19,891 bases of DNA from a virus, in UHGV virus genome UHGV-0140551, one strand, 5' to 3'. A model generated the notes under the pieces. The model did no database searches. It was not told where the DNA came from and saw only the letters and a program-made list of their open reading frames with translations. A program made the translations under genes and the position numbers. This document shows, one piece after another, positions 137 to 9,111 of this stretch. The stretch's first letter is position 1; every line of letters starts with the position of its first letter.

Positions 137-1186
137 TTATGCAACCTCTGCCGCCACATTGTCGCCAACATACAGCGATAACGGATTGAGGGTTACAGCT
201 TGTTCAAGGTGGTCAGGAGCAAAGTGCGCATACTTCATTGTTTCTCGAATATTGGCATGTCCGAGAATTTTCTGCAGCACCAGTATATTCCCTCCGTTCA
301 TCATAAAATGCGCACCAAAAGTATGACGCAAAACGTGCGTCTTCTGCCCTTCCGTCAATTCAATATTCGTTAGTTTGAGCATCTTTTTAAACTCCTGATA
401 GCAGGGTTTAAACATTCTGCCTTGACGTACGGACAACTCGTCGTACAGCCATTTAGGAATAGGAACTGTGCGATTCTTCTTACCTTTGGTTTTGGTGAAC
501 GTTAGTTTATATGGAGAAAGTTGAGGTCGGGTCAATCTCTCCGCTTCCCCCCATCGAGCGCCGGTTGCAAGGCACACCTTAACAATCATGGTGAGGTCTT
601 CTTTGCCGTATTGCTCGCAGGCTCGAAACAGCTCCGGGAGCTGAGACAAAGTTAGCCAGGACATTTCTTTCTCAGCTTCTTTGAATACTCGGATCCCATC
701 AAGTGGATTGGGTAGGCTCCACTCCCCTAACCGGCGGAGCTCATTAAACACTGCTTCTAGGTATTGTTGTTCGCGATTGACGGTTATAGGTTTGGCGATC
801 CATTTCGAGGGGTCTTTATGATAACCATTGTCTATTTCACCACGTAATCGACGGTCACGATAATGAGCCCAGTCTTTCGCGGTAAGGCGAGATGCAATCG
901 GGTCGCCAAGTCCATTACATACGATTTGAAGCTTTGCAAATCTCGACTTACTGGCGACTAACGCTTGACCGTGCAAATTGTGCCAAAGCTGAATAATCTC
1001 GCTTAAGCGTCGGCGGTCTTCTTTCTTGCCGAGCCACGGCTTATCTTCACTCTCGCTTTTGGTAAATGCTTCAAATGCCTCGGCCTCACCTTTGGTATTG
1101 AACTGCCGACGTATACGCCGCCCTTCTCGACCATTTGGATAGAGTTCACACAACCATTTTCCACTTTTTTGTTTACTTACAGTCAT
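137..1186 (-). CDS. int: Tyrosine-type site-specific integrase (P2 Int-like)
   Basis: 349-aa ORF with the C-terminal catalytic region HVLRHTFGAHFMMNGGNILVLQKILGHANIRETMKYAH typical of phage tyrosine recombinases. It sits at the prophage edge and overlaps the att core. Confidence 0.93.
   Translation of the reverse strand: MTVSKQKSGKWLCELYPNGREGRRIRRQFNTKGEAEAFEAFTKSESEDKPWLGKKEDRRRLSEIIQLWHNLHGQALVASKSRFAKLQIVCNGLGDPIASRLTAKDWAHYRDRRLRGEIDNGYHKDPSKWIAKPITVNREQQYLEAVFNELRRLGEWSLPNPLDGIRVFKEAEKEMSWLTLSQLPELFRACEQYGKEDLTMIVKVCLATGARWGEAERLTRPQLSPYKLTFTKTKGKKNRTVPIPKWLYDELSVRQGRMFKPCYQEFKKMLKLTNIELTEGQKTHVLRHTFGAHFMMNGGNILVLQKILGHANIRETMKYAHFAPDHLEQAVTLNPLSLYVGDNVAAEVA
142..170. repeat. Left attachment-site repeat (attL core), overlapping the 3' end of int
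   Basis: CAACCTCTGCCGCCACATTGTCGCCAACA matches 19829-19857 at 25 of 29 positions, with the first 15 identical. It encodes the last codons of the integrase (…VGDNVAAEVA). Confidence 0.7.
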
Positions 1187-1558: not shown

Positions 1559-2404
1559 TTAAACATGCTTTTCCAAAGTAAAAATAACCGCACCTGATGG
1601 TGTGATATCTGAAATATTACATTCAAACTCAGCAGACTTATTTGATAACCTGACCTTTCCGCCTGGCAACCTGATTACGTCAAAAACATCGAGTGCGCCA
1701 TCAATACCAATAAGCCAGCGACCATTTCCTATCTTCGAGTTAGAACTATCAACAAGCCAAGATGTGCTCACACCATCAATAAACACTAAATCATCAGTAT
1801 TTGATGGAACCATAGATATATCAGGAGTCCAGCGTCCGATATCTTTGAGTTCGCCAGCCTCGAGGCGGCACTTTCTAATCGTTAAAGCATTTGCCGGTTC
1901 ACCATCATTACTGTTACGCATCTGGCCTTTTCCGGTTGATAACCATTCTAACGATACGCCAGTATCAAGGGCGCAAGTGACAACCACGTCACCGGGGAAA
2001 AAATCGCGTCTAACCCAAGTGCTTATAGTGCCGGAAGATATACCTAATAAATCTCCAAGCTCTTTTTGCAGAGTAAAACCATACGCATCGAGAATCCGAC
2101 GCAGAACCGCCCTCCCTCCATTTGCCATGATTTCATCATAGAGTTGCTTACCTTTAAGCTTAGTTTTCACCACTTCAAATCTTGCATTTGCAAGCTCACC
2201 ATTAATTAGCCATCGCAGGTCAGCTCCAGTATCAAGAGCACACTCAACGAAAACGTTGCTAGGGATTACGTTTCTAGCAAGCCAGCTACTCACGTTGTTT
2301 GCATGTATGCCAAGCCTTTCGGCTAGTTCCTTTTGCTGCTTAAAGCCGTATGCAGAAAGGACACGTTCCAATGCGGCAGACGCATTAACATCATTTTTAG
2401 ACAT
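1559..2404 (-). CDS. CI-type immunity repressor (186 CI-like) with two tandem N-terminal HTH repeats
   Basis: Start trimmed to the ATG at 2402-2404 (MSKNDVNASAALERVLSAYGF…); the longer ORF N-terminus is cysteine-rich junk that would overlap the divergent operon. Two homologous about 60-aa HTH segments (LERVLSAYGFKQQKELAERLGI… and LRRILDAYGFTLQKELGDLLGI…) precede a distinct C-terminal domain. Confidence 0.8.
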   Translation of the reverse strand: MSKNDVNASAALERVLSAYGFKQQKELAERLGIHANNVSSWLARNVIPSNVFVECALDTGADLRWLINGELANARFEVVKTKLKGKQLYDEIMANGGRAVLRRILDAYGFTLQKELGDLLGISSGTISTWVRRDFFPGDVVVTCALDTGVSLEWLSTGKGQMRNSNDGEPANALTIRKCRLEAGELKDIGRWTPDISMVPSNTDDLVFIDGVSTSWLVDSSNSKIGNGRWLIGIDGALDVFDVIRLPGGKVRLSNKSAEFECNISDITPSGAVIFTLEKHV

Positions 2405-4458: not shown

Positions 4459-6681
4459 TTGGCTGTTCAATTCGCTTATCCGTGGAACGTCCCACGGTCG
4501 GCAATCTCCAGCCCATACCTTACTTATGAGCAACAGCATCGCCGCGACCGTATGTTCGCGGCTTTGCTGCATGCAAAAAAGGTGCTTTCTCTCCAGCCCG
4601 ACTGCGTGCGGTTAGATGTTTATCGCACTGCTGCGGTGCTGGAGCAAAATCAGGGTAGTCAACGAGCCAATGCATTTTTAATCAGCTTCTGCAAAAAGGC
4701 ATTGCCGCGTCTTGAACTGGTCGCAAAAAAATACGAATGCGCTGGTATCAACAGCAAGGTATCAACCGCTGTTTTTGGAAGTCATTTTGATACTCAGCAA
4801 ATGCAATATCTGTCGTCACGCATGGTTAATATGGTCGCCCAATATAACCGTCTCCCGGACATGTCGCGCGCTGATGTTGACCTGTTGGCCGCTGATATTG
4901 CTAATTTCATTCGTGGTGAACTTGCCAACATTAATGACCACGGATTCGGCGAGCTTAAAACGCTGTACACCTGGTATATTCGTGCTGGCTTTATTTCCCT
5001 CCAATTCAACGTTATCCCACCACATTGGGAGCGGGTTGAAAAAAAATATGTCGGTGCGGATGAAATCGCACCGGCTATCGCCAAAATGTTTAACGATGGG
5101 TGGTGGCGCGGTCGTTTGCGCCGTGTTGCAGCTACGTGGCGCGAACACCTGCAAATTGCAGTCGGCAACGTCAGTAAGAAAAAAAACACTTACGCGAGTA
5201 AAAACTGCGTGACTGACTGGCGTGAACAAAAGCGCCGCACTCGTGAATTTCTCAAAGGTCTGGATCTCGAAGACGAAGACGGCAACCGTATCAGCCTAAT
5301 TGAAAAATATGATGGCTCAGTTGCTAACCCTGCGATTCGCCGCTGTGAGCTCATGACCCGCATTCGTGGGTTTGAAAACATCTGTAATGAGCTCGGTTAT
5401 GTCGGTGAGTTTTACACTCTAACCGCGCCGTCAAAATATCACGCCACGACTAAAGCCGGTTACCGTAACAGCAAATGGAGCGGTGCCAGCCCGGCTGACA
5501 CGCAAAACTATCTAACCGGTATCTGGGCGCGTATCCGTGCCAAACTACATCGGGAAGATGTCCGTATTTTCGGTATTCGTGTCGCCGAGCCCCATCACGA
5601 CGGCACTCCACACTGGCACATGCTGATGTTCATGCTGCCGGAAGATGTTGAATATGTTCGCTCCATCGTCCGTAAATACGCATGGAAAGAAGACCGCCAC
5701 GAACTGAAAAGCGATAAATCCAAAAAAGCACGTTTCCACGCCGAGTCCATTGACCCGGAGAAAGGCAGCGCAACCGGCTATGTTGCTAAATACATTTCAA
5801 AAAATATCGACGGTTATGCTCTCGATGGTGAAACCGATGATGAAAGCGGTGAGCTGCTGAAAGAGACAGCCCCCGCCGTTTCAGCATGGGCTGCGCGCTG
5901 GCACATCCGTCAGTTTCAGTTTATTGGTGGTGCGCCGGTGACGGTTTACCGTGAGTTGCGTCGCCTCGCTGATACCGAAACCGCGCACGGTCTGAGCGTT
6001 GAGTTTGCCGCCGTCCATGATGCCGCCGACGCTGGTGACTGGGCTGGTTATGTTAATGCTCAGGGTGGGCCGTTTGTCCGTCGCGATGATTTACAGGTGC
6101 GCACACTGTATGAACCGCGCACCGAGCTTAATCAGTACGGTGAGGAAACGGTATGTATTAAGGGGGTCTACGATTCCTCCATAGGTGCAGGAAGCCCGAT
6201 TTTAACCCGGCTCACTCAGTGGAAGATTGTTCCGAAGCGTGCTGTTGATTTGGCCGTTGACCTTCAGGACGGCAAAGCCGTCCCTCGGAGTTCTGTCAAT
6301 AACTGTACGGGAAGCGAAAGCGATCCACCGATACTGGATTTAACAAAACCACTGAGTCGGCGTGAAAGACGAGAATTGACCAACCGACTCAGGAAGCAAA
6401 AGCCAGCAGCACGGCGAAAATTCATCCACGGAACGGATGAGCAAAACGCAGCTATAGCTAAAACTATCGATGAGATACATCTGACAACCGGCATTAATAT
6501 CAGCCGGGGCGAAGCCCTGCACCTGATGGCCGGTGGTAAAAGTTGTTTTGATGGTAAATGGCTACGCGGAACGGCCAAAGGAGAAATATTTTCCGCAGCA
6601 CCATCGCATGAGGCTAAAGCTCGGAAAATCCTTAATCGTGTTGCGGCGATGGCTGAAGCATCAAAACCAATACATGGGTAA
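4459..6681 (+). CDS. Replication initiation endonuclease (P2 gpA-like rolling-circle initiator)
   Basis: 740-aa ORF with an HUH-type metal-binding motif (TPHWHMLMF) and a tyrosine-rich catalytic segment (GYVAKYISKNIDGY). The start is a TTG at 4459 with a GGGGGG ribosome-binding site; the alternative ATG at 4552 is not excluded. Confidence 0.85.
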   Translation: MAVQFAYPWNVPRSAISSPYLTYEQQHRRDRMFAALLHAKKVLSLQPDCVRLDVYRTAAVLEQNQGSQRANAFLISFCKKALPRLELVAKKYECAGINSKVSTAVFGSHFDTQQMQYLSSRMVNMVAQYNRLPDMSRADVDLLAADIANFIRGELANINDHGFGELKTLYTWYIRAGFISLQFNVIPPHWERVEKKYVGADEIAPAIAKMFNDGWWRGRLRRVAATWREHLQIAVGNVSKKKNTYASKNCVTDWREQKRRTREFLKGLDLEDEDGNRISLIEKYDGSVANPAIRRCELMTRIRGFENICNELGYVGEFYTLTAPSKYHATTKAGYRNSKWSGASPADTQNYLTGIWARIRAKLHREDVRIFGIRVAEPHHDGTPHWHMLMFMLPEDVEYVRSIVRKYAWKEDRHELKSDKSKKARFHAESIDPEKGSATGYVAKYISKNIDGYALDGETDDESGELLKETAPAVSAWAARWHIRQFQFIGGAPVTVYRELRRLADTETAHGLSVEFAAVHDAADAGDWAGYVNAQGGPFVRRDDLQVRTLYEPRTELNQYGEETVCIKGVYDSSIGAGSPILTRLTQWKIVPKRAVDLAVDLQDGKAVPRSSVNNCTGSESDPPILDLTKPLSRRERRELTNRLRKQKPAARRKFIHGTDEQNAAIAKTIDEIHLTTGINISRGEALHLMAGGKSCFDGKWLRGTAKGEIFSAAPSHEAKARKILNRVAAMAEASKPIHG

Positions 6682-6755
6682 TTCATATCCATATCATGCA
6701 CATACAGCAATCGCTCTATTCGTTTTTTTTCTTCCCATCTTTTGCCAATACGTGC

Positions 6756-6775
6756 TACTGTATAAATATACAGTA
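6756..6775. promoter_or_regulatory. LexA operator (SOS box) TACTGTATAAATATACAGTA
   Basis: CTGT-N8-ACAG with 19 of 20 matches to the consensus TACTGTATATATATACAGTA. It lies 20 bp upstream of the ORF at 6795 and overlaps an AT-rich -10-like region. Confidence 0.85.
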
Positions 6776-6794
6776 ACCCTGTGGGAGGGATTTC

Positions 6795-6977
6795 ATGGTT
6801 GGCGAACATTTCAGCCGAACGCAGCAAAAGTGGGCTTGTGTGCAATTTATTGCCGAGGTATCTCTGATTGCAAACTGCAAGCCATCAGACTTAAAGCTCG
6901 CGCTCACTCTCATTGCAGACCTAGCAAACAGCGAAAATAACGAAACCGAAGATGATAATTTTTATAAGGCTGATTAG
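6795..6977 (+). CDS. LexA-regulated small protein, candidate Tum-like antirepressor (N-terminal part)
   Basis: 60-aa ORF with a GGGAGGG ribosome-binding site 6 nt upstream, directly downstream of the LexA box and immediately before the DinI-like gene. 186 tum has the same arrangement. Confidence 0.5.
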   Translation: MVGEHFSRTQQKWACVQFIAEVSLIANCKPSDLKLALTLIADLANSENNETEDDNFYKAD

Positions 6978-6980
6978 ATT

Positions 6981-7214
6981 ATGAGAATCAATATCACGTT
7001 GGATAAAGAGCAAAAAATTAGTCAGGCAACATTGGATGCACTTGAGGCTGAACTGTACCGCAATCTTCAACCTATTTACCCAAAGACTGCTATCCGAATT
7101 CGCAAGGGCTCCGCTAATGGCGTTGAACTAAGCGGTTTGAAACTGGACGAAGATAAAAAACGAGTAATGGAAATCATGCAGCAGGTATGGGAGGACGATA
7201 GCTGGCTGCATTAA
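6981..7214 (+). CDS. DinI-family protein (Tum C-terminal / Orf97-like)
   Basis: 77-aa ORF with clear similarity to DinI (MRI…ALE.EL.RR…MEI.Q.VWEDD…W), in a LexA-controlled operon. Confidence 0.8.
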   Translation: MRINITLDKEQKISQATLDALEAELYRNLQPIYPKTAIRIRKGSANGVELSGLKLDEDKKRVMEIMQQVWEDDSWLH

Positions 7215-7220
7215 CAAACG

Positions 7221-7255
7221 CCGCCGGTGCTGAAACTTGCTTTCAGTGCTGGCGG
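7221..7255 (+). terminator. Stable hairpin immediately after the DinI-like stop codon (15-bp stem with G-U pairs, 5-nt loop); no clear U-tract
   Basis: CCGCCGGTGCTGAAA-cttgc-TTTCAGTGCTGGCGG. Could be a weak terminator, an RNA stability element or a processing site. Confidence 0.35.
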
Positions 7256-7347
7256 GGTTGAACAACGAGCTACGCGAGGCGTTAGCCGGTCATAGCGTCG
7301 CAAATACTTCAACCGTCTGCTGGTTAAATAATTCGAGGTTTTTGTAC

Positions 7348-7542
7348 ATGCAAAATCCCCTTTCATCGAAAAATGACCCGTTTGCCGATTGGGCAAAGAA
7401 TCTGACTTTAATGGCTTTAAATAACGACCTGAGCTCTCGCGAGGTGGAAAGCTACACCGCAAAAATGGTCGAGCAGGCCGGTAAAGATGAGCTATCAGTC
7501 GTTATCAAACACCTGTTAAATCACATCAGAATGCGCAAATAA
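7348..7542 (+). CDS. Small hypothetical protein (64 aa)
   Basis: Start trimmed to the ATG at 7348, which has a GAGG ribosome-binding site 8 nt upstream (MQNPLSSKNDPFADWAKN…). No recognisable motif. Confidence 0.45.
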   Translation: MQNPLSSKNDPFADWAKNLTLMALNNDLSSREVESYTAKMVEQAGKDELSVVIKHLLNHIRMRK

Positions 7543-7558
7543 GAGGAACTATATAAAT

Positions 7559-7660
7559 ATGTTATCTATCGTTTATGAAAATCCGTGGACGACGATTTTT
7601 CTGATGATTGTTGCCAGCATGTGCCTCAACAGTGTTATTGGCGCATTGCGCGGCCATTAA
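7559..7660 (+). CDS. Small hydrophobic, probably membrane-spanning peptide (33 aa), not in the supplied ORF track
   Basis: ATG at 7559 to TAA at 7658-7660, translating to MLSIVYENPWTTIFLMIVASMCLNSVIGALRGH. It starts 17 nt after the preceding ORF and is followed by a rho-independent terminator. Below the length cut-off of the ORF track. Confidence 0.35.
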   Translation: MLSIVYENPWTTIFLMIVASMCLNSVIGALRGH

Positions 7661-7682
7661 TCGCGACAAAACCAGACTAAAA

Positions 7683-7708
7683 CCGGCACCCTGAATGCCG
7701 GTTTTTTT
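7683..7708 (+). terminator. Rho-independent terminator ending the early/SOS operon (bidirectional architecture)
   Basis: CCGGCA-ccctgaa-TGCCGG followed by TTTTTTT, and preceded by an A-run. Confidence 0.8.
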
Positions 7709-7868
7709 ATGCCATTTTTCCGCGAATTTCCCGTTTTTTAGTCGTGCATGCATTAGGTGCATGGTTTTGCATGCGTCAGTCTTGCCCGTTCTGTCCGTGC
7801 GCCGCCAGAGCTAGCGCGGATCCAGAGTTGTCATGCAACTGCATTAAAACCGCCCCATAAAGCGGGCA

Positions 7869-7887
7869 GGCGTGGCGGGGAAAGCAT
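7869..7887. other. cos cohesive-end site (186-type)
   Basis: GGCGTGGCGGGGAAAGCAT matches, from memory, the 19-nt cohesive end of coliphage 186 and 17 of 19 positions of P2 cos (GGCGAGGCGGGGAAAGCAC). It lies between the replication gene and the portal remnant, as expected. Confidence 0.7.
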
Positions 7888-8106
7888 TGCGCGCCAGCAG
7901 TGATGCGTAATAATAAAAATTATCCTCTGAGCGCGTCGTGATGGCGCTGTCGTGGTCGCTGCTGGTTCGTTGGTGGTCGAGTGTGTTCGTGCGCGTGAGA
8001 CGCATCTGATGCGTGATGGTGGTGTGCATGGAAAAGCCACCAGGAGCAGCGGCTTTACAGGAGTGGCAGGATTCAAACTGCTAATTATGTTTCTACTATG
8101 ATTAAA

Positions 8107-9111
8107 CTAATTTACATGTATGTAGAGTTCACCGTCGCCAGACCAATCGGGACACTCTAAAACAAGCCCAAACTGCTTGAATATTTCATCAATGATTATT
8201 GTTATCTCCCGAAAATCACCAAAACCTGTAATGTGCTGGTCATTAAACTTCCCATAAAGATTCTGAAAAGCAATGCCTAATTCTGATAATTGATATCTTA
8301 TCTTTGAGTTGGATAGTGTAAGGGATAGCTTTGGATCGTATTCTTTAATATTGATGTTTAGAGAATGGACATAACCCATCGCATAAGCATAAGAGTTGAT
8401 GATTAGCCTGATACGTTTTTTTACTTCAAGATACATGTCATTCAGAGAAATATTACCGTACTTATAACCCCAGATGAGTTTTTCAATCTCGTCAGATACT
8501 TCATTTACAACAGTGTCAAGATTCTCTAAAAATAAATCGATAGTTTCTTGAGGGGCAGACCCCGAAGACATGTAATTAGCGAGATATTCAGACCATGCAC
8601 GCGTGGCTGAGATAAGAAGCGCGCTACCATACTCGTTGACTGTAAAGTTTTGGGCTAAGCATGTTAGTAAGTTTTTTTCATGTACGTGCACTAATTCATG
8701 GTGAATGCGATGGATGACTGCGAGGTATCCTTCTTCTTTCAGTTTTAAGAAGCTACCATCATTGAAAAGCTCAACAAAAAAATCAATCGATAGCACAAGG
8801 GTATATTCTTCACATAGCCCATCATTGCCAATTTTTGTTACTAACTGCCCGACGGCTGCGCCCTGTTTGCTATTGGTAAATGAACTAGGGGATTTGTGTT
8901 GGTAAGAGGATGTTACCTTTTGAAGAGCTTCACTGAAGTTATAGGAAACAATCACGCATTTTAATTTGGAGATATCAAGATTGAGATTTTTTGTTAAAGC
9001 TCGGATAGCTTCTAGTGTGAAATTACCGATATTATTTGCTTCTTGCTCAGTAGCGAAACCTTCGAGGGTTATTTTAAAATCAGTTTCCAAAATATTAATC
9101 TCCGCGCCCAT
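8107..9111 (-). CDS. AT-rich accessory protein with an HExxH (zinc-metallopeptidase-like) motif; candidate anti-phage or abortive-infection gene in the cos-portal hotspot
   Basis: 334-aa ORF of markedly lower GC than the flanking phage genes. It contains HRIHHELVHVHEKN (HELVH at residues 138-142), has no Walker A motif and no transmembrane segments, and sits where P2-like phages carry variable accessory genes. Confidence 0.7.
   Translation of the reverse strand: MGAEINILETDFKITLEGFATEQEANNIGNFTLEAIRALTKNLNLDISKLKCVIVSYNFSEALQKVTSSYQHKSPSSFTNSKQGAAVGQLVTKIGNDGLCEEYTLVLSIDFFVELFNDGSFLKLKEEGYLAVIHRIHHELVHVHEKNLLTCLAQNFTVNEYGSALLISATRAWSEYLANYMSSGSAPQETIDLFLENLDTVVNEVSDEIEKLIWGYKYGNISLNDMYLEVKKRIRLIINSYAYAMGYVHSLNINIKEYDPKLSLTLSNSKIRYQLSELGIAFQNLYGKFNDQHITGFGDFREITIIIDEIFKQFGLVLECPDWSGDGELYIHVN

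Follow-up and report, generated by a model that had tools for sequence, protein, structure and literature searches.

Phage 186 carries tum, whose product is a LexA-controlled inhibitor of the CI repressor (PMC7708051). In the 186 record (U32222), tum begins 18 nt beyond a LexA site, which itself begins at the -10 of an SOS-dependent promoter, p95 (-35 TTCACA, -10 TACTGT), and shorter DinI-like products of tum are annotated there too, as an earlier note on the DNA studied here had stated. Lemire et al. (2011) wrote that 186 Tum looks as if an antirepressor had been fused to DinI, and reported that a stop codon splits the tum region in Fels-2 and PSP3 (PMC3121763). The two parts have separate entries in the PSP3 record (AY135486), where tumA (29134–29316) is annotated as "similar to 5' end 186 tum; UV induction of prophage" and tumB (29320–29553) as "similar to dinI and 3' end of 186 tum". 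That the upstream of these two genes carries antirepressor activity goes back to a personal communication of G. E. Christie, given via Bunny et al. 2002 and cited here in the form in which PMC3121763 relays it. For E. coli HS, the Phollow study (PMC12055606) reported that the induction of the P2-like prophage DuoHS by mitomycin C was lost in delta-tum and in lexA(Ind-).

The window, i.e., the whole stretch of 19,891 nt that was analysed (UHGV virus genome UHGV-0140551), covers the early genes and the beginning of the late region of a prophage that belongs to the P2 family and is of the 186/PSP3 type (Eganvirus). Its landmarks upstream of the module discussed here are the following:

137–1186, minus strand: integrase, first in the gene order and followed by a small ORF
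1559–2404, minus strand: cI, encoding the immunity repressor (281 aa) on which TumA presumably acts (Pfam Phage_CI_repr in two stretches, and Phage_CI_C)
4459–6681: gene A, the rolling-circle replicase (Phage_GPA match), followed by the LexA-box module and then the late genes

After cI come, in order, a Cox/Apl-like gene, cII, fil, other small genes and a gene for a DksA/TraR-like zinc-finger protein. The synteny of the window, with a tandem-HTH CI upstream, matches that of PSP3 and 613R3. The CI repressor, which the earlier note had proposed as the partner of the small upstream protein, is a real gene, in which two tandem HTH domains, at about residues 1–85 and 86–170, are joined to a C-terminal domain of the 186 type at about 171–281; residues 100–274 align with the 186 CI structure (2FJR) at E=4e-21. 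A Pfam scan of this CI did not find an S24 peptidase (autocleavage) domain. Induction of the lambda type, through autocleavage of CI, was considered and rejected, because the C-terminus matches Phage_CI_C and 186 CI and not S24. The presumed target is therefore a repressor of the 186 CI family, as seen from the matches to Phage_CI_repr, Phage_CI_C and 2FJR, and since it is devoid of an S24 domain, inactivation in the manner of lambda would be impossible and an antirepressor would be needed.

The module itself begins just downstream of gene A, and consists of these features:

6732–6737, plus strand: putative -35 hexamer (TTCCCA) of a p95-like SOS promoter, placed by alignment with the annotated -35 of 186 p95 (TTCACA)
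6756–6761, plus strand: putative -10 hexamer (TACTGT), the same as the annotated -10 of 186 p95, which doubles as the left arm of the LexA box
6756–6775, plus strand: predicted LexA (SOS) box, TACTGTATAAATATACAGTA, which agrees with the consensus TACTGTATATATATACAGTA at 19 of 20 positions and has a single mismatch
6783–6789, plus strand: Shine-Dalgarno sequence GGGAGGG for tumA, read from the sequence and ending 5 nt 5' of the ATG
6795–6977, plus strand: tumA, predicted 60-aa antirepressor forming a two-helix hairpin, named by homology to PSP3 TumA
6981–7214, plus strand: tumB, 77-aa protein of the DinI family (Pfam DinI PF06183, E=7.4e-24)

The LexA box, which had been noticed beforehand as a 19-of-20 match, is the sole site with three or fewer mismatches in the 19.9-kb window, and none of 200 dinucleotide-preserving shuffles contained a LexA-like site at that threshold. 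The core CTGT-N8-ACAG occurs once only in the whole window, at 6756–6775, and is unbroken in 158 of the 159 related viral loci for which upstream DNA is available; the boxes of the related loci have 1–4 mismatches to the consensus and lie 17–22 nt 5' of the start codon. The earlier note had placed the box 20 bp upstream of the 60-aa ORF; the order stands, and the gap to the ATG at 6795 is 19 nt. The succession of a 60-aa ORF and a DinI-family ORF that it had described was found as stated, with a gap of 3 nt.

The putative promoter was recognised through its relatives. A generic sigma-70 promoter scan of 6600–8200 called no consensus promoter, and the two hexamers are poor, weak matches, so that the promoter is assigned by homology to the characterised p95 of 186 alone. 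This homology is extensive: an alignment of the window with PSP3, 613R3 and 186 is near-invariant from a run of T 5' of the -35 through the LexA box, and the spacing between the two hexamers (18 nt) matches that of 186. Judged from this alignment, the predicted promoter and operator of the window are orthologous to 186 p95. The LexA box overlaps the promoter of the antirepressor gene as it does in the 186-type system and, since the -10 sits within its left arm, bound LexA would occlude the promoter.

The first gene of the module, tumA, reads from the ATG at 6795 to a stop codon at 6975–6977. Its product differs from PSP3 TumA by a single residue (N55I), and the TumA family comprises 208 homologous clusters at 90% identity, nearly all of them of about 60 aa. 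Over 31 alleles, dN/dS is about 0.10, and on this basis tumA is a real coding gene evolving under purifying selection. The AlphaFold model places helices at residues 2–25 and 30–55, with pLDDT above 90 at residues 11–40. The exact TumA sequence is present on at least 1000 public contigs, as is the exact TumB sequence, and 141 of 5426 complete E. coli genomes carry a match. The protein is nonetheless thinly annotated: the exact sequence is named 'TumA' in UniRef and 'hypothetical protein' at NCBI, its PHROG (phrog_1993) is labelled 'unknown function', and neither Pfam nor NCBIfam holds a family model that matches it. A PDB sequence search with the TumA profile gave no credible relative, the matches being short and of low complexity (a designed repeat protein and S100P).

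The second gene, tumB, begins 3 nt after the tumA stop codon. Its product matches PF06183 over its full length (84.3 bits against a gathering score of 24.2), aligns end-to-end with E. coli DinI (1GHH, E=2.6e-9), the acidic C-terminal helix included, and is 47% identical to residues 71–145 of 186 Tum (E=5e-28). It also differs from its PSP3 counterpart by a single residue (P30A). Set against the chromosomal DinI (PDB 1GHH, 7YWA), TumB falls under the NCBIfam equivalog cut-off (52 bits versus 111), and by these comparisons it is a phage paralogue of DinI.

Further features lie downstream of tumB:

7214–7287, plus strand: conserved 74-nt element enclosing a hairpin, at the distal end of the operon cargo, 95.9% identical to 186 30341–30414
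7217–7259, plus strand: strong hairpin without a U tract (folding energy -38.5 kcal/mol, z-score -4.1)
7348–7542, plus strand: 64-aa ORF, putative third gene of the SOS operon (phrog_2454, E=4.6e-40)
7679–7709, plus strand: t95b-like intrinsic terminator, stem ACCGGCA/TGCCGGT followed by T7, the T run being read directly

The hairpin after tumB was considered as an intrinsic terminator and rejected because the U tract is absent. The 74-nt element that encloses it has its 186 counterpart (30341–30414) downstream of orf97, and was found in 12 of 80 loci with TumA-type proteins and in 28 of 80 with Tum of the 186 type; an Rfam search of the whole window returned no match, the conserved hairpin included. 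The tumB gene and the 64-aa ORF are on the same strand and have no intrinsic terminator between them. The stem at 7679–7709, the sequence of which resembles the annotated 186 terminator t95b, was called on the minus strand by the terminator scan, and the T run on the plus strand was read from the sequence, which suggests a bidirectional terminator. The SOS transcript would thus probably comprise tumA, tumB and the 64-aa ORF and end at 7679–7709.

The closest relatives of this module are already in the databases. The region 6650–7350 is 94.5–95% identical to the Salmonella phages PSP3, SEN1, SW9 and SI22, and 96% identical to Escherichia phage Midge and to a Klebsiella phage. The near-identical ORFs of 60 and 77 aa adjoin each other and lie between gene A and the cos/late region, as in the PSP3-type split module. 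The module is hence a rediscovery of the split tum operon of the PSP3/Fels-2 type, which has been annotated in PSP3 since 2002, and is not new. The earlier note had proposed, from the letters and from knowledge of 186, an SOS circuit with the antirepressor and DinI-like parts of Tum in separate ORFs, and this proposal is supported by PSP3 tumA/tumB, by the p95 alignment and by the published description (PMC3121763). We consider that the SOS-induction operon, as judged from its sequence, is real and probably functional.

How TumA relates to the N-terminal half of 186 Tum had to be approached with profiles. BLASTP of TumA against 186 Tum gave no alignment, even at E<=100. Alignment of the two families with hhalign gave a probability of 87.5% with a narrow profile and of 95.3% with a broader one (E=2.4e-8); the latter alignment keeps the same register without a gap for 53 columns, and the two families have a motif in common, RV-x-[FM]IA ... 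C-x3-D-x2-[IL]AL-x-LIA[ED][IL]A. The AlphaFold model of a 63-aa protein of the 186 type has helices at residues 2–22 and 28–47, and in both the TumA and the 186-type models two helices form a hairpin whose turn carries the conserved Cys. An exhaustive HMM search with the TumA profile returned 36 representatives, essentially all of them small stand-alone proteins, and no fused Tum of the 186 type; two long matches to the profile (931 and 773 aa) look spurious, consisting of repeated short stretches. Because the profile match is joined by the predicted fold and by an identical genomic position and promoter, TumA and the N-half of 186 Tum are taken as distant homologues, the homology of the antirepressor domains holding at the level of remote homology only. 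The DinI moiety is not fused to the antirepressor in the window, where the stop codon at 6975–6977 separates the two ORFs; one pair of modules is found in two layouts, split in PSP3, Fels-2 and the window and fused in 186. Stand-alone N-halves of the 186 type also exist, as ORFs of 63–76 aa named "Tum protein" in Salmonella, Kluyvera, Klebsiella and Edwardsiella, and their existence indicates that the splitting of Tum recurs in both the TumA-type and the 186-type branches.

The two types were surveyed in 80 viral loci with TumA-type proteins and 80 with N-halves of the 186 type. The ORF is 60–61 aa long in 79 of the 80 TumA-type loci, and the dinI-like part is fused to it in none (0/80); the 186-type loci have a fused ORF of 146 aa in 77 of 80 and a fused dinI-like part in 79 of 80. 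A LexA box stands in front of tumA in all 80 loci of its type. The dinI-like gene is less constant there, being separate with a 3-nt spacer in 46 loci, further downstream in one and absent in 33; in one locus of the last group (L050), the slot after tumA is filled with unrelated cargo, two ORFs of 156 and 198 aa. Because it can be absent or replaced by other cargo, the dinI-like gene is, across the surveyed loci, optional, and what stays constant downstream of the LexA box is tumA. In the Gifsy prophages, deletion of the dinI homologue had no measurable effect on induction (PMC3121763), and by analogy a role for TumB in induction is doubtful.

The type of antirepressor goes together with the type of CI. 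Among loci with upstream DNA, the CI beside TumA was of the PSP3 type in 69 of 70 (62 tandem-HTH and 7 single-HTH), and the CI beside 186-type Tum was of the 186 type in 68 of 69, so that the two types track each other in 137 of 139 loci, with L069 and L132 as the exceptions; the Fisher p of this pairing, 1e-37, overstates the independence of loci that are related by descent. In the Yersinia 186-like phages, the DNA from cII to A is about 88% identical to the window, yet cI and tum both differ. That these phages share the intervening DNA and differ at just those two genes fits a co-selection of cognate TumA/CI pairs. Among the CIs linked to TumA, identity to the window CI is 42–100% in the first HTH, which can also be absent, 60–100% in the second HTH and down to 34% in the C-terminal domain. 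The second HTH being the best kept part of the TumA-linked repressors, there is a hint that TumA may recognise it; the hint is a tentative one, because L132 pairs an HTH2 that is 62% identical with a Tum of the 186 type. Correlations between TumA and CI-domain identities were weak and confounded by shared ancestry, and were set aside as evidence.

The best available experimental parallel comes from a different branch. The delta-tum primers published for E. coli HS (supplement of PMC12055606) are an exact match to the sequences on either side of a 62-aa ORF found in L207, a locus from IMG/VR and not the HS genome itself; they had no match among the first 165 loci, and L207 came from a separate scan of the collection. 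In this locus, the 62-aa ORF has a LexA box 5' of it and is followed, 10 nt on, by a separate 77-aa DinI-like gene, the product of which is 79% identical to TumB. Aligned with the TumA profile, the 62-aa HS-type Tum gave a probability of 66% in hhalign, in the same register, and the CI of L207 is of a third type (191 aa, one HTH, 37% identity). Since the primers remove just the 62-aa ORF, and leave the DinI-like gene intact, the small upstream ORF alone is, by this correspondence with HS, what a split module requires for induction.

From these comparisons we consider it very likely that the window module serves SOS induction of a prophage resembling PSP3 and 186 (Eganvirus, P2 family) and acts from LexA through TumA on CI. 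In the lysogen, as homology to the 186 promoter would have it, host LexA would sit on the box over the -10 of the weak p95-type promoter just downstream of gene A, and keep tumA and tumB silent. Upon DNA damage, activated RecA would promote the self-cleavage of LexA and the operon would be transcribed. TumA, by analogy with 186 Tum, the PSP3 report and the HS deletion, would then bind the non-cleavable CI (1559–2404) and free the lytic promoter, leading to lytic growth. TumB, the translation of which is probably coupled to that of TumA, would be optional; speculatively, in line with a suggestion of the earlier note, it may modulate RecA filaments and, with them, the strength or duration of the SOS response.

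Other readings of the module were weighed against this one. The operon could be SOS-regulated cargo (a moron) of use to the host or the phage when DNA is damaged, for example a DinI-like device for tuning RecA, and not the switch for induction, in a prophage whose induction takes another route or does not respond to SOS at all. P2 proper is not known to be SOS-inducible, which would suit such a reading, and so would the variability of the slot after tumA, with unrelated cargo in some relatives, as well as the presence of orf97 in the same operon of 186. Against it, tumA is constant in the surveyed loci of its type (80/80), always behind a LexA box; its type tracks that of a CI that has no autocleavage domain, and E. 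coli HS loses induction when the corresponding small ORF is deleted. We therefore regard the cargo reading as improbable. It is more improbable still, in our estimation, that the DinI-like TumB is the active inducer, via RecA or CI, and the 60-aa ORF a leader or accessory peptide. This idea draws on 186, where the DinI-like and antirepressor parts are fused and a modulating effect on induction is annotated for the shorter DinI-like products, but it is contradicted by the 33 TumA loci (of 80) that have no dinI-like gene and retain the LexA box and tumA, by the purifying selection on tumA, by the PSP3 report, which, as relayed, credits the upstream gene with antirepressor activity, and by the HS deletion, which took the upstream ORF alone.

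A chance origin of the 60-aa ORF, with the LexA box controlling the dinI-like gene only, is the least credible of these alternatives and we give it next to no weight: in its favour, the ORF is short, matches no family in Pfam or NCBIfam and is a 'hypothetical protein' at NCBI, but 208 clusters of constant length, a dN/dS of about 0.10 over 31 alleles, a good Shine-Dalgarno sequence, a confident predicted fold and a dedicated PHROG family all speak against chance. The reading in which LexA controls TumA and TumA inactivates CI is the one that we retain.

A wider proposal can be attached to it, which we put forward as a conjecture with the chances rather against it: TumA may belong with the N-half of 186 Tum and with the 62-aa HS Tum to a single superfamily of antirepressors that are about 60 aa long and fold as helical hairpins, each type matched to the operator-proximal HTH of its own CI, with TumA targeting HTH2. 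If true, co-resident P2-family prophages would have a simple specificity code that lets them be induced orthogonally. The pairing of antirepressor and CI types offers in any case a starting point for the study of induction specificity and of crosstalk among co-resident prophages. The discovery value of the module itself is small, given the PSP3 annotation since 2002, the description in the literature and the identical protein on at least 1000 public contigs. It is of some practical use for annotation, because TumA is a 'hypothetical protein' at NCBI, of 'unknown function' in PHROGs and without a Pfam or NCBIfam model: SOS-inducible prophages of the P2 family can be flagged by a LexA box and a tumA-like ORF that come after gene A.

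Among the known systems, Gifsy-1/2/3 (GfoA, GftA and GfhA), as described (PMC3121763), also have a LexA-repressed operon with a small antirepressor and a DinI homologue, and a non-cleavable repressor, but they are lambdoid, have the gene order reversed (dinI first) and carry repressors of another family. DuoHS shares the split layout, with a LexA box, a small ORF and then a separate DinI-like gene, although its small protein belongs to a third sequence branch and its CI to a third type. In 186, the promoter likewise lies downstream of gene A, with a LexA box over the -10 and with promoter DNA that can be aligned, and 186 also has in common with the window a non-cleavable CI whose C-terminal domain is the same, the 74-nt element and the terminator (t95b in 186); 186 differs in having one Tum of 146 aa, with internal starts leading to DinI-like products, in place of the two ORFs of the window, a CI with one HTH instead of two, and orf97 in the operon where the window has the 64-aa ORF. 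PSP3 stands closest: its two ORFs are as long as those of the window and likewise 3 nt apart, its LexA box and promoter are identical, the pair also lies between the replicase gene and cos, and its CI has the tandem-HTH architecture too. The first HTH of its CI has diverged from that of the window, so that the immunity specificities of the two probably differ, and the flanking genes are just about 83% identical overall to those of the window; PSP3 and the window do not differ in kind.

The family of the predicted 60-aa antirepressor TumA (6795-6977, +) is an annotation gap: neither Pfam nor NCBIfam holds a model for it, PHROGs lists it as phrog_1993 with the label "unknown function", and the protein is called "hypothetical protein" in NCBI records as against TumA in Salmonella phage PSP3 and in UniRef. 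The immunity repressor CI (1559-2404, -), the presumed target of TumA, is built from two tandem Phage_CI_repr helix-turn-helix (HTH) domains, which share 51% identity, followed by a 186-type C-terminal domain, whereas the CI of coliphage 186 has a single HTH. Immunity specificity may be set by the first domain, HTH1, since among relatives this is the part of CI that varies most (42–100% identity), and since it is missing from CI in 7 TumA-linked loci. Antirepressor and repressor types were found in exceptional pairings in two loci, one (L069) with TumA alongside a 186-type CI and the other (L132) with a 186-type fused Tum alongside a PSP3-type tandem-HTH CI; these may be recombinants in which inducibility has been changed or lost.

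Features in the window and in related viral loci
6690-6707: 18-nt block CATATCATGnACATACAG, shortly 3′ of the stop codon of gene A and ahead of the SOS promoter
7214-7287: 74-nt element directly after the tumB stop, containing a hairpin at 7217-7259
7348-7542: conserved 64-aa ORF (phrog_2454, labelled unknown function) between tumB and the t95b-like terminator
L050, 7014-8482: slot behind tumA, holding unrelated cargo (156-aa and 198-aa ORFs)
L207, within 7300-7799: LexA box TACTGTAAATATAAACAGTG, then a 62-aa ORF, a 10-nt gap and a DinI-like gene

A split Tum module of a third type was present at 7300-7799 of L207, an IMG/VR locus from a separate collection scan, and this locus was matched exactly by the published E. 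coli HS delta-tum primers, designed for the P2-like prophage DuoHS (PMC12055606). Its DinI-like protein shares 79% identity with TumB, and its CI, of 191 aa and with a single HTH, is 37% identical to that of the window. The slot behind tumA, from which the dinI-like gene is missing in 33 of the 80 TumA-type loci, acts as a variable, SOS-controlled cargo site, given the unrelated ORFs that fill it in L050.

In an alignment of the window, PSP3, 613R3 and 186, the 18-nt block was without variation except at the n position, and the roughly 20 nt directly after it diverged. At the other end of the operon, the hairpin (15 bp, -38.5 kcal/mol, z-score -4.1) lacks a U tract and had no match in Rfam. 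The 74-nt element around it, found in 12/80 TumA and 28/80 186-type loci, invariably lies at the distal end of the cargo that the SOS operon carries, and may serve as a boundary between modules or affect RNA stability; the stretch behind orf97 in phage 186 matches it with 95.9% identity. The 64-aa ORF, which may be co-transcribed under SOS control, takes the position that orf97 holds in 186.
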